DNA of 64,000 bases from Escherichia coli. GTDB taxonomy: Bacteria > Pseudomonadota > Gammaproteobacteria > Enterobacterales > Enterobacteriaceae. Positions within the stretch are counted from its first letter, which is position 1, and every line of letters begins with the position of its first letter. Under the pieces are notes generated by a model that had not been told where the DNA came from, searched no databases, and saw only the letters and a program-made list of their open reading frames with translations. Shown here one piece after another: positions 30,513 to 59,161 of this stretch. The translations under genes and the position numbers were made by a program. The stretch is from assembly GCF_003991155.1 (NCBI RefSeq), contig NZ_CP031295.1. One strand, written 5' to 3'.

Positions 30513-31555
30513 TGGATCTTTCGAACTGTTACTAAGAGGGTAATCATAGCCAAACATAAACTGGAAATGTCCTAATTCTAAACCTGTTCCAATACCTACA
30601 CTATAATCAAGAGGACTTAAACTTCCATCACTTCCAAAAGGTTTTGTGTACTTCTCTTGAGTTTTCGTAGCTAAATAGTAGTGTTTGTTGGTAAATCCAA
30701 ATAATCCAATATTCAATCTTGCGACCGGGAAAGTCCTCTTGAAAGTACCACAAGTTCGCGGGATGGAGTTTTATCCCAGCTGCATCGAGAAAGGCATGCG
30801 CAGTGAGCGTGCTCTCAAGCTCGCCATCGCCGAAATGTATGTCAAAGGAGTAAGTACCCGCAGGGTCTCGGATATCGTCGAAATTCTTTGTGGCACCGAA
30901 GTCAGCTCGTCCCAGGTCAGCAGGCTGGCAAAGGAGCTCGATGAAGAGATTACGTCTTGGAAGGCGCAGCCTGTCGGACAGATTCAATACTTGGTACTTG
31001 ATGCGACCTATGAATCGGTTCGCGTCGGTTCCCATGTGGTCAAGCAGGCGCTTCTAGTGGCTATTGGCGTTGATTACAGCGGGAATCGGCATATTCTTGA
31101 CGCCGAAGTCGCGAACAGTGAGGCAGAGGTAAACTGGCGTTCCTTTCTCGAGGGTCTCGTACGACGAGGGATGCACGGCCTGCGAATGATCACCAGTGAT
31201 GACCACTCAGGACTGCGCGCGGCAATCGATGCTGTCTTCCCTGGAATTCTGTGGCAACGCTGCCAGTTTCATCTGCAGCAGAATGCCCACTCCTACGTCA
31301 CGAAAAAAGATGAGATCCCGCTGATAGCCGCTGATATTCGGAAGGTGTTCAATCGGAATATGTCAAGATAGTTTATGCCAGATTTTTGAGAGGTTTGCAT
31401 CAAGCAGCCTTCGAAAGAGGACGGCATGACATTGAGACCGGCAAGGCGTCGTAGATACGCACTTTCCCAGTACGCCACCGTAAGGGGTTTTTCTCTTTGG
31501 CAGCAAGAATGGTTTGGTTTCTTTTTTCCTCGGCGCCGTAGGCGTCCGACTAACA
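30513..31555 (+). mobile_element. IS256-family remnant, copy A (the 'IS440' segment of sul3 contexts); 30441-30512 is contiguous but absent from copy B
   Basis: Internal 228-aa transposase fragment with MYVKGVSTRRV and DATYESVR motifs; 1043 bp identical to inverted copy at 58074-59116. Confidence 0.75.
30685..31371 (+). pseudogene. IS256-family transposase fragment
   Basis: Middle ~228 aa of a ~400-aa transposase; both ends missing. Confidence 0.75.
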
Positions 31556-31773
31556 ATTTATTGTACGGAATCTATCCGTGATTTTGGGGTGGATCGGGTC
31601 GTCATAGTCTGGTGTGAGACTATGTACCGGAAGCTTGAAAATCCCGGATAAAGCCCGCTTTGGCAATGTTTTTGTACCGCATAGATTATGCAAAAATGCG
31701 GAAAGTTTCTTCATAGTCAGCAATGGGACTTGCTCGTGTATATACTGTTTATATATACATGTGGAGGTGACTC
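31556..31773. promoter_or_regulatory. Putative attI/promoter region of the second integron integrase
   Basis: Lies upstream of the divergent intI-like gene; ends at AAATTG|TTAGTC junction. Confidence 0.35.
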
Positions 31774-32745
31774 ATGCGCAAGCCTCATTCGCCGTTTTTG
31801 GCAAGCATCTATGAGCAGATGTTGATGCTGCGTTACGCGATGGCAACCGTTGAAGCCTATCTGCACTGGATCAAGGCATTTATCCGTTTTTCCCGGATGA
31901 AGCATCCGGTCGAGCTGGGTGAGGCGGAGGTTCAGCAATTTTTGTCCTATCTGGTCACCGAGCGCCATGTGGCTGTCAAGACTCAGGCCCAGGCGTTGAA
32001 TGCGCTGGTCTTCTTGTATCGCACTGTCTTGTTACGGCCTCTGCAGCTCGAGATGAAATTTACGCGCAGCCAGCGCCCTCCCAAACTGCCAACTGTTTTG
32101 ACGCAAAGTGAAGTCCGAGCCTTGTTGCTGGCTATGCCAGTTCATCTTCGTCTCTTGGCGCAACTGATGTATGGCAGCGGACTCAGGCTGATGGAGGTGA
32201 TGCGCCTGTGCGTGCAGGATATCGACTTCAACTACCTCTGCCTGATGGTCTGGAATGGCAAAGGGGGCAAGCACAGGCGTGTGACTCTGGCCTCGGAACT
32301 CATTCCGGCCCTGCGGGAGCAAATTGCCTACGTCCAGCGCTTTTATATGACGGACTGCTTAAACGACGCGTATGCCGGGGTGGCCTTGCCGACGGCATTG
32401 GCGCGCAAGTATCCGGCTGCCAGCAAAGAGCTGGGTTGGCACTACCTGTTTCCGGCATCCCATCTGAGTCGCGATCCTGTCGATGGGGCCTTGCGTCGAC
32501 ATCATCTGGATCCAACTACCCTGCAAAAAGCGGTTCGAGCCACGGCGCGTCAGCTACAGCTGGGAAAACCGGTCACCTGTCATACCTTGCGCCATTCCTT
32601 TGCCACCCATTTGCTGGCGCGGGGGGCGGATATTCGAACCGTGCAGGAGCAACTGGGCCATTCTGATGTTCGAACCACACAAATTTATACCCATGTGCTG
32701 CAAAACGGCGCCAATGGGGTACGTAGCCCTTTGTCTGATCTGTAA
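31774..32745 (+). CDS. Integron integrase (IntI family), not IntI1/IntI2/IntI3 by recall
   Basis: 323 aa; roughly 45-50% identical to IntI1 by eye, including the integron-specific LP.AL.RKYP...RRHH insert and [10 protein letters not shown] / IYTHVL motifs. Confidence 0.7.
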   Translation: MRKPHSPFLASIYEQMLMLRYAMATVEAYLHWIKAFIRFSRMKHPVELGEAEVQQFLSYLVTERHVAVKTQAQALNALVFLYRTVLLRPLQLEMKFTRSQRPPKLPTVLTQSEVRALLLAMPVHLRLLAQLMYGSGLRLMEVMRLCVQDIDFNYLCLMVWNGKGGKHRRVTLASELIPALREQIAYVQRFYMTDCLNDAYAGVALPTALARKYPAASKELGWHYLFPASHLSRDPVDGALRRHHLDPTTLQKAVRATARQLQLGKPVTCHTLRHSFATHLLARGADIRTVQEQLGHSDVRTTQIYTHVLQNGANGVRSPLSDL

Positions 32746-32973
32746 TGGTTGGGGGGCGGGACGCTCGGTTTTTCAGAACGAGTGGCCTGACGCAGGCACG
32801 CTACCGCCCTTAGGTTACAGCTCCTAGAGGCTGACATCCGTTTCAGGTGGTGGCTTGTTACCCGGGCCATTTTCATCCTGATGGCCTGTTCTTTTCGTCA
32901 AACTATGCTACGGATTTCAGTTTCATATGGAAATAAATAATCGACGGGATTTGCAAAAATGTGCGATAGACAG

Positions 32974-57678: not shown

Positions 57679-58011
57679 GTGAAGAACTGGCTCTTTCTGG
57701 CTATTGCAATATTTGGTGAGGTCGTCGCAACTTCCGCACTGAAGTCCAGCCATGGATTCACCAAGTTAGTTCCTTCTGTTGTAGTTGTGGCTGGCTACGG
57801 GCTTGCGTTCTATTTCCTCTCTCTCGCACTCAAGTCCATCCCGGTCGGCATTGCTTATGCTGTTTGGGCTGGCCTCGGCATCGTACTTGTGGCAGCTATC
57901 GCTTGGATCTTCCATGGCCAGAAACTAGACTTGTGGGCGTTCGTTGGCATGGGACTTATCGTTAGTGGCGTCGCCGTTCTAAATCTGCTATCCAAGGTCA
58001 GCGCACATTGA
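57679..58011 (+). CDS. qacH: SMR quaternary-ammonium efflux protein QacH (qacL/qacF-like)
   Basis: 110 aa four-TM SMR; GTG start with GAGGAG RBS; attC ends at G|TT junction at 58075/58076. Confidence 0.85.
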
Positions 58012-58073
58012 TCGGGCTGGCATCTAACAGTTCATTCAAGCCGACGCCGCTTCGCGGCGCGGCTTAATTCAGG

Positions 58074-59116
58074 TGTTAGTCGGACGCCTACGGCGCCGAG
58101 GAAAAAAGAAACCAAACCATTCTTGCTGCCAAAGAGAAAAACCCCTTACGGTGGCGTACTGGGAAAGTGCGTATCTACGACGCCTTGCCGGTCTCAATGT
58201 CATGCCGTCCTCTTTCGAAGGCTGCTTGATGCAAACCTCTCAAAAATCTGGCATAAACTATCTTGACATATTCCGATTGAACACCTTCCGAATATCAGCG
58301 GCTATCAGCGGGATCTCATCTTTTTTCGTGACGTAGGAGTGGGCATTCTGCTGCAGATGAAACTGGCAGCGTTGCCACAGAATTCCAGGGAAGACAGCAT
58401 CGATTGCCGCGCGCAGTCCTGAGTGGTCATCACTGGTGATCATTCGCAGGCCGTGCATCCCTCGTCGTACGAGACCCTCGAGAAAGGAACGCCAGTTTAC
58501 CTCTGCCTCACTGTTCGCGACTTCGGCGTCAAGAATATGCCGATTCCCGCTGTAATCAACGCCAATAGCCACTAGAAGCGCCTGCTTGACCACATGGGAA
58601 CCGACGCGAACCGATTCATAGGTCGCATCAAGTACCAAGTATTGAATCTGTCCGACAGGCTGCGCCTTCCAAGACGTAATCTCTTCATCGAGCTCCTTTG
58701 CCAGCCTGCTGACCTGGGACGAGCTGACTTCGGTGCCACAAAGAATTTCGACGATATCCGAGACCCTGCGGGTACTTACTCCTTTGACATACATTTCGGC
58801 GATGGCGAGCTTGAGAGCACGCTCACTGCGCATGCCTTTCTCGATGCAGCTGGGATAAAACTCCATCCCGCGAACTTGTGGTACTTTCAAGAGGACTTTC
58901 CCGGTCGCAAGATTGAATATTGGATTATTTGGATTTACCAACAAACACTACTATTTAGCTACGAAAACTCAAGAGAAGTACACAAAACCTTTTGGAAGTG
59001 ATGGAAGTTTAAGTCCTCTTGATTATAGTGTAGGTATTGGAACAGGTTTAGAATTAGGACATTTCCAGTTTATGTTTGGCTATGATTACCCTCTTAGTAA
59101 CAGTTCGAAAGATCCA
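58074..59116 (-). mobile_element. IS256-family remnant, copy B (inverted relative to copy A)
   Basis: 1043 bp identical to 30513-31555 in reverse orientation. Confidence 0.8.
58258..58944 (-). pseudogene. IS256-family transposase fragment
   Basis: Identical 228-aa fragment to 30685-31371. Confidence 0.75.
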
Positions 59117-59161
59117 AGAGCCGATAAAATGAGATTGTATTAATCTCATTTTATCGGCTCT
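59117..59161. repeat. Perfect 20-bp inverted repeat with 5-nt loop at the IS256-remnant/tet(M) junction
   Basis: AGAGCCGATAAAATGAGATT-GTATT-AATCTCATTTTATCGGCTCT. Confidence 0.85.

Follow-up and report, generated by a model that had tools for sequence, protein, structure and literature searches.

An exact inverted repeat ending at two integron crossovers and the apparent isomers of a sul3–tet(M) resistance region in Escherichia coli

How does a multiresistance region come to carry two perfect copies of the same kilobase in opposite orientation, one beside sul3 and the other beside tet(M), and what has happened to the DNA between them? The question is raised by a 64,000-nt stretch of Escherichia coli DNA (contig NZ_CP031295.1 of assembly GCF_003991155.1; here called the window), in which positions 30513–31555 (arm A) and 58074–59116 (arm B) are inverted copies of 1043 nt each, 100% complementary and 26518 nt apart. 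An earlier note, made from the letters of this stretch, had described two reverse-complement copies there; on renewed comparison their identity was exact, and the origin of a perfect 1-kb inverted repeat within 64 kb cannot be ascribed to chance. The answer that we find quite likely is that recombination between the arms inverted the DNA between them and so gave the isomer seen in the window, after two resistance modules sharing the repeat had come to lie in one region rich in IS26. The arguments for this come from the composition of the arms, from the integron sites at their inner ends and from the order of the same modules in other plasmids. The coordinates of all features are given in Table 1.

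The repeat and its integron junctions

The flanks of the two arms had been outlined in the earlier note, and its description of the outer ends agrees with the gene matches. Copy A was said to run into sul3, and the outer end of arm A is indeed followed by a 74-bp spacer and then by sul3 (Sul3 profile NF000296, 613.6 bits). Copy B was said to stop at a 20-bp palindrome followed by Tn916-like tet(M) DNA; the outer end of arm B stands directly against a hairpin with a stem of this length, beyond which a Tn916-type KTR gene and tet(M) (Tet(M) profile NF012155, 1495 bits) were found. The third statement, that both copies start at an integron crossover, fits the two inner ends, where G/TTAGTC of the qacL attC and the core of an attI site were found.

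The same note had called the repeat a 1043-bp remnant of an IS256-family insertion sequence (IS). A transposase fragment of that family is present, but it accounts for only 636 of the 1043 bp (61%) and is internal to the gene: the repeat is a three-part mosaic, not an insertion sequence. In a tblastn comparison with the whole arm, P0153, a related transposase of full length (385 aa), aligned only to 30718–31353, at 87% identity, and no full-length DDE transposase was found, only residues 55–266 of about 385. Neither terminal inverted repeats nor a target duplication of an IS delimits the arm, which ends instead in an outer-membrane-protein gene fragment or Tn916 junction on the outer side and in an integron crossover on the inner side. 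The transposase remnant is the 'IS406 tnp' of papers on the transposons Tn6942 and Tn7124 (PMC8193513, PMC11539080), and IS440 is the other name used for it in the literature. We considered whether the innermost 202 bp could be the missing C-terminus of the transposase and rejected this, the piece showing no similarity to the transposase in tblastn. It occurs in 904 plasmid records, at 983 places, all of them within copies of the arm, and no context outside the arm was found for it in plasmids. Taken whole, the arm corresponds to the opening kilobase of the sul3-type 3' region ('qacH/qacL-IS440-sul3') of sul3-associated class 1 integrons. A mosaic with only an internal transposase fragment, ending in an integron crossover and a Tn916 junction, accords with the view already expressed in the note that no fresh transposition had taken place.

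The inner ends are the more informative ones. Arm-to-arm identity stops at most 2 bp from a recombination crossover, which belongs to an attC site in one copy and to an attI site in the other. The former is that of qacL, which folds as an imperfect attC-type hairpin (−18.4 kcal/mol, z = −4.35). The latter lies in a 218-bp spacer that separates arm A from the integrase gene of a second integron. In four to nine free-standing relatives of this integron, homology ends at the core TAACAATTTATT, with a different sequence beyond it in each; in a metagenomic relative with 92% protein identity, it extends over the gene and its upstream DNA and ends at ...ACAATAAATTG / TTAG, beyond which stands another gene cassette. 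When Aeromonas veronii (79%) and an Aeromonadaceae metagenome-assembled genome (78%) are aligned as well, TAACAATTTATT is the sole long invariant block, and beyond it all four aligned sequences differ. Copies from Aeromonas and metagenomes share 99.5% DNA identity with the window from 31550 onward and have, left of the core, an ordinary three-cassette array. These comparisons show the spacer to be, by homology, the attI of the second integron, and the arm occupies that integron's first-cassette position, joined to it at the canonical crossover. Because the identity of the arms ends within 2 bp of both the attC and the attI crossover, a past integrase-mediated attI × attC exchange is indicated; involvement of such recombination had been proposed in the note, and the two inner boundaries do fall on the crossovers of attC(qacL) and of the second attI, the place of the latter being fixed by the free-standing relatives. 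In one metagenomic copy (L023, 1–1600), a gene of the IS91 family (Y2 transposase) stands at the first-cassette place, and homology to the window begins 2 bp later than it does elsewhere.

The owner of this attI is not a class 1 integron. Its integrase gene is intact, and the protein, with 294.9 bits on the IntI1 equivalog profile NF011946, falls below the cutoff of 435. With the IntI1 of the window it shares 46% identity, and the catalytic R-K-H-R-H-Y positions are aligned. At 321 of 323 residues it is identical to a copy found in Aeromonas assemblies and metagenomes, the nearest relatives being Aeromonadaceae; relative to the Aeromonas allele, the window protein carries the substitutions R146C and I158M. 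The features of an integron platform are in place, namely a full-length tyrosine recombinase of integron type, which has the domain specific to integrons, and an adjacent, divergent attI with a G/TT crossover. Cassettes bearing attC sites are lacking downstream of this attI in the window, but its relatives do have arrays, and on the IncP wastewater plasmid pRHBSTW-00464_5 the integron holds about ten small cassettes. By its relationships, the second integron is a free-standing, Aeromonas-type mobile platform without a class name. The 'novel intI' of the earlier note is apt insofar as the gene has no such name, and a literature search for the integrase accessions found nothing; as a gene it is not new, since 107 public plasmids or more contain it. 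In Enterobacterales, it occurs nearly always together with the tet(M) junction (nine of ten long contigs).

At the outer boundary, one of the two continuations, into sul3 or into tet(M), should be the older. Tn916 natively continues beyond this point with further genes of its own, and the base composition of the sul3 side runs on evenly into the arm, the GC (guanine plus cytosine) content being 38% in sul3, 32% in the spacer and 34% in the outermost arm piece; for these reasons, we regard the tet(M)/arm junction as probably derived and sul3/arm as the original continuity. The open reading frame (ORF) with weak outer-membrane beta-barrel similarity, at 30441–30716, passes the arm boundary at codon 68, toward sul3, and is weak evidence for the same conclusion; against this support, a 76-aa ORF spans the tet(M)/arm junction too in annotations. 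The native continuation of Tn916 is the stronger argument of the two.

Inversion isomers among public plasmids

If the bracketed DNA has been turned around, plasmids with the other orientation may be expected, and such plasmids exist. Window positions 30513–59116 are colinear with positions 5785–34388 of NZ_CP068510.1, a Salmonella Derby plasmid, over 28,604 bp at 99.965% identity and with no gaps. The outer parts have traded places: 26807–31555 (IS26, mef(B) remnant, SDR, GrpB, sul3 and arm) and 58074–63021 (arm, KTR gene, tet(M) and IS26) both match the Salmonella plasmid reversed and at the opposite end. On this comparison, a 36.2-kb IS26-bounded unit exists as two isomers whose sole difference is the inversion of the DNA between the arms. 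In the Salmonella isomer, a tet(M) module like Tn7124 stands beside a canonical sul3 class 1 integron, and in the window their recombinants are found, one of them sul3-arm-integrase and the other like Tn6942. The region upstream of sul3 stays with it in both isomers, and so does that of tet(M).

The breakpoints between the isomers lie inside the arms, several kilobases from any IS26, and this bears on the most obvious alternative, that mobile elements moved the DNA. An IS256-family transposase fragment does sit in the arm, and three IS26 copies are nearby, one of them inverted, so that recent transposition of the former or rearrangement by the latter might be thought of. The fragment, however, is an internal one flanked by unrelated DNA, and the arm stops at an integron crossover on one side and at the join with Tn916 DNA on the other, not at the ends of an IS. 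With an internal transposase fragment and breakpoints inside the arms, we rejected both fresh IS256 transposition and IS26-mediated inversion, and give this origin of the copies next to no credence. A programmed switch of the Hin/Gin or shufflon type was discarded as well, no invertase-specific sites being seen and the repeats being a kilobase of debris.

The exchange can also be followed junction by junction. We searched 72,556 plasmids (PLSDB) with four 2043-nt queries, each consisting of the arm and 500 bp on either side, and counted a record when a single place covered at least 80% of the query. All four combinations of flanks exist: the canonical qacL-arm-sul3 in 698 records, tet(M)-arm-integrase in 79, and the two types found in the window, sul3-arm-integrase and qacL-arm-tet(M), in 16 and 61, respectively, with eight plasmids holding both of the latter. 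Since every combination is found, exchange within the arm has evidently happened in nature. The earlier claim that the bracketed segment could be inverted by recombination between the copies gains from both sources, the flipped isomer in NZ_CP068510.1 (99.97%) and the four flank combinations. The sul3-arm-integrase junction is also seen in about a dozen complete E. coli plasmids. In some 25 of the plasmids with qacL-arm-tet(M), the 2043-bp query matched over 2105 bp in two pieces, pointing to a variant about 62 bp longer.

An inverted repeat of 1043 bp is longer than short reads, and PLSDB has no record of exactly this isomer with the same inner content; the orientation seen in the window might thus be an artefact of an assembly that resolved the repeat wrongly, an outcome that the earlier note had itself named as one that would undo its reading. 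The junctions are, however, reproduced in pCUVET18-1475.1 (NZ_CP098842.1), a complete and independent plasmid whose backbone belongs to the same (sil/pco-type) lineage; it is colinear with window positions 8497–51527 across arm A in one 43-kb alignment and 100% identical to 54532–61836 (7.3 kb) across arm B. Together with the 16 and 61 further records that carry the two junction types, and the eight that carry both, this plasmid makes an assembly artefact very improbable. Owing to a rearrangement by IS26, the arms of pCUVET18-1475.1 point the same way, and recombination between them would delete or resolve the intervening DNA, not invert it.

The history that best accounts for these observations would run as follows. 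One copy of the arm belongs by history to the class 1 integron (dfrA12-orfF-aadA2-cmlA1-aadA1-qacL, then arm, sul3, mef(B) remnant and IS26) and the other to the tet(M) module (IS26 and Tn916 fragment, then arm, then attI-integrase and IS26, as in Tn7124). The latter copy would have gained its attI junction by an integrase-catalysed exchange between attI and attC(qacL), and a tet(M) fragment would later have taken the place of the sul3 side at 30513/59116. Once both modules stood in one IS26-rich region, as they do in NZ_CP068510.1, a single reciprocal crossover between the arms would invert the 26.5 kb and swap the partners, giving sul3-arm-attI/integrase and qacL-arm-tet(M). Inversion and attI × attC recombination had been offered in the note as alternatives; both have support, and they do not exclude each other, as the attI × attC event explains how the second copy came by its inner junction and the inversion explains the present arrangement.

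As to the enzyme, a reciprocal crossover between perfect 1043-bp inverted repeats is a textbook substrate for RecA, and RecA-dependent homologous recombination over this length of perfect identity is the most likely route. One could also imagine that an integron integrase, IntI1 or the second one, inverted the segment by acting on the attI and attC(qacL) sites, which bound the bracketed DNA on its two sides and are inverted relative to each other. Neither att site is damaged or misplaced, neither integrase gene is truncated, the second has its catalytic positions aligned with those of IntI1, and the inner boundary of the arm records an attI × attC exchange that took place at least once. Since the same arm comes after either att site, the two routes yield products that agree in every base. 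On the other hand, attC sites recombine as folded single strands, the junction then being resolved by replication, and this pathway is documented for the insertion and excision of cassettes, not for large inversions, for which reason we rate the site-specific route lower. The perfect kilobase is ample for RecA, the window integrase has the two substitutions named above (R146C and I158M), and efficient use of a foreign attI is not known for IntI1. All in all, we consider catalysis of the inversion by an integrase unlikely.

As to which isomer came first, we infer from the 698 records of the canonical junction that the Salmonella-type isomer of NZ_CP068510.1 was parental and that the window form was derived from it. 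The reverse order would make the window arrangement ancestral: the sul3 region would first have stood at the Aeromonas-type attI, the canonical qacL-arm-sul3 would have arisen by attC(qacL) × attI exchange, and the 'unusual 3' conserved segment' would stem from the second integron. The junctions are geometrically symmetric, so that the two directions require equally many events, and the sul3-arm-intI module, bounded by IS26, is found alone in several plasmids. Against this order, the canonical structure outnumbers the other about 40-fold (698 versus 16 records) and is taxonomically broader, free-standing copies of the platform, 99.5% identical and with ordinary cassettes, are found in Aeromonas and in an IncP plasmid, and the integrase in Enterobacterales comes nearly always with the derived tet(M) junction. 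Frequency and host breadth favour a canonical qacL/arm junction that existed before attI captured the arm, and an ancestral window arrangement seems to us improbable. The reciprocal product of the exchange, qacL attC joined to the first Aeromonas cassette, gave no exact match in metagenome contigs, and Aeromonas cassettes beside qacL were not found in any plasmid, which says nothing on the direction of the exchange. A more venturesome version, for which we see slightly more room though we still doubt it, would have the Aeromonas-derived integron trading its array for the sul3-type 3' region by attI × attC(qacL) exchange or, more boldly, donating that region to class 1 integrons in the first place, with the flip driven by integrase and inducible by SOS.

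Several points weigh against an inversion by recombination between the arms, with the Salmonella form as the parent. The exact isomer of the window, with this 26.5-kb content, was not found in PLSDB, and the five PLSDB records that have the whole inner segment all show the other orientation; the closest backbone relatives of the window have been rearranged by IS26. To call the segment invertible is to compare one plasmid with another, and the choice of the ancestral isomer goes by module frequency only (the 698 canonical records). Finally, as the arms adjoin att sites, the sequence cannot separate homologous from integrase-mediated exchange.

Named modules and their meaning

The sul3 integron has long been known, and inversions between inverted repeats are commonplace in resistance regions. 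The phenomenon is ordinary resistance-region plasticity, worked from modules that have names, the sul3 integron, Tn6942 and Tn7124. All components of a sul3-associated class 1 integron are in the window at about 100% identity: intI1 is present with an array ending in qacH/qacL, and the qacL attC is followed directly by the IS440-containing segment, with an arm identical to that of the 698 canonical records. The structure departs from the canonical one in that arm B continues into tet(M), whereas sul3 is found on the other arm, 27 kb away and inverted.

The two tet(M) structures have been described as IS26-orf13 remnant-lp-tet(M)-'IS406 tnp'-qacL-aadA1-cmlA1-aadA2-dfrA12-intI1 for Tn6942 and its relatives (PMC8193513, PMC11539080) and as IS26-ctp-lp-tet(M)-hp-'IS406 tnp'-'IntI4/IntI3'-IS26 for Tn7124 (PMC11539080). 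The former is present without interruption, window positions 51674–63021 corresponding to pLAO14 20364–31711 at 99.965%. Tn7124 has the same tet(M)/arm and arm/attI-integrase junctions, and is itself the partner module in the flipped isomer NZ_CP068510.1; in the window, however, tet(M) and the integrase are on different arms, whereas in that Salmonella plasmid they stand together. The label 'IntI4/IntI3' does not fit the integrase, which was neither IntI3 nor IntI4 in the tests run and is of Aeromonadaceae type. The papers treat Tn6942 and Tn7124 as separate IS26 composite transposons and mention neither the shared kilobase as a recombination substrate nor the attI junction (PMC8193513, PMC11539080). 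Tn6539 and Tn6709 were considered as relatives and rejected, their tet(M) contexts lacking the arm.

An inversion between inverted IS26 copies has been proposed for pSTM6-275 (PMC5923156). The logic is the same, with identical inverted copies, a reciprocal crossover, an inner segment that flips and flanks that swap, but the repeat in the window is a dead mosaic fragment, not a mobile element, and its inner end falls together with two integron sites, so that a site-specific route exists too. With cassette integration, the region shares the canonical G/TT crossover at both inner arm ends; it differs in that the arm, in first-cassette position, has no attC and is made of debris (IS, outer-membrane-protein gene and sul3) and in that the two sites belong to different integron classes.

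What appears to be undescribed is that the named modules are isomers linked by a 1-kb segment that ends in a cross-class integron crossover with an Aeromonas-type integron. Tn6942, Tn7124 and the sul3 integrons would then be interconvertible isomers or deletion derivatives of one IS26-bounded unit, which would explain why tet(M), sul3 and the dfrA12-aadA2-cmlA1-aadA1-qacL array turn up in differently named 'transposons'. Since separately named structures can be converted into each other through the shared 1-kb segment, typing schemes that count them as separate acquisitions would overcount events, and short-read assemblies will mis-orient a 1-kb inverted repeat. Beyond this, a non-class-1 platform of Aeromonas type circulates in more than 100 Escherichia and Salmonella plasmids, and its recombination with a class 1 integron at attI/attC would be a small but concrete example of cross-class exchange.

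The remainder of the window

The features of the resistance unit, including those outside the arms and their junctions, are collected in Table 1.

Table 1. Features of the IS26-bounded unit in the window, in order of position
Feature	Position	Strand	Details
IS26, left boundary of the 36.2-kb unit	26807–27626		820 bp between 14-bp IS26 terminal repeats
sul3 module	27632–30438	+	mef(B) remnant; SDR oxidoreductase, 28032–28895; GrpB, 28933–29178; sul3, 29647–30438
Spacer between sul3 and arm A	30439–30512		74 bp, AT-rich, GC 32%; outside the repeat, on the sul3 side only
Arm A	30513–31555	+	outer neighbour sul3; inner neighbour attI of the second integron
Arm piece 1	30513–30717	-	205 bp; C-terminal part of an outer-membrane beta-barrel ORF; PF13568, E = 9.4e-4 (weak)
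Arm piece 2	30718–31353	+	636 bp; internal fragment of an IS256-family transposase, aa 55–266 of ~385; NF033543, 231.7 bits
Arm piece 3	31354–31555		202 bp, ending at the integron crossover; no transposase similarity
attI region of the second integron	31556–31773	-	invariant core TAACAATTTATT, 31551–31562; crossover G(31554) / TT(31553–31552), minus strand
Second integron integrase	31774–32745	+	323 aa, intact; TIGR02249, 446.7 bits (cutoff 265)
Rest of the Aeromonas-type fragment	32746–37620		IS5-family remnant (~33123–34022), Xre-type antitoxin gene, TnAs1-family transposase fragment
IS26, internal	37621–38440		direct relative to the left copy
Resistance block	38441–52249		ISAba1-sul2, ISCR2-lysR-floR with partial ISCR2 duplication, IS1006, TnAs3 tnpA/tnpR; from annotation of colinear records and ORFs
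intI1	52250–53263	-	class 1 integron integrase; annotated in colinear records
Class 1 cassette array	53408–58011	+	dfrA12-orfF-aadA2-cmlA1-aadA1-qacL; NCBIfam CmlA, AadA1, QacL
qacL attC	58024–58081	+	core GTTAGTC, 58075–58081; crossover G58075 / T58076
Arm B	58074–59116	-	inner neighbour qacL attC; outer neighbour Tn916 fragment
Hairpin	59117–59161		20-bp perfect stem, 5-nt loop, terminator-like; DNA fold −21.7 kcal/mol, z = −9.57
Tn916-derived fragment	59117–62201	-	KTR-domain gene, 59151–59318; tet(M), 59437–61356; leader peptide; truncated conjugal-transfer gene
IS26, right boundary	62202–63021		inverted relative to the other two copies

On the sul3 side, the SDR assignment comes from a family match, and the same genes follow qacL-arm in NZ_CP068510.1. 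Beyond the second integrase, homology with an Aeromonas contig (L018) extends to 33925, and the TnAs1-family transposase fragment at 36104–37620 is cut by the internal IS26. No 8-bp target duplications were found around the three IS26 copies, and owing to this the history of the IS26 insertions could not be ordered. The three copies also delimit two more nested segments open to inversion, one of 23.8 kb and one of 34.6 kb, which lie around and across the two arms. An IS1006 at 46796–47614 is 77% identical to IS26.

The DNA to the left of the unit (1801–26800) is a sil/pco (silver/copper resistance)-malT backbone with 98.8% identity to its best plasmid matches, and the resistance unit has 99.97–100%. 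These values are consistent with the unit having moved between backbones, of IncF/IncR type here and IncHI1B in NZ_CP068510.1. Within the resistance block, a 1067-bp direct repeat of ISCR2 (ISVsa3), at 41445–42511 and 45729–46795, flanks a lysR-floR-virD2-like block and offers a substrate on which floR can be deleted or amplified.

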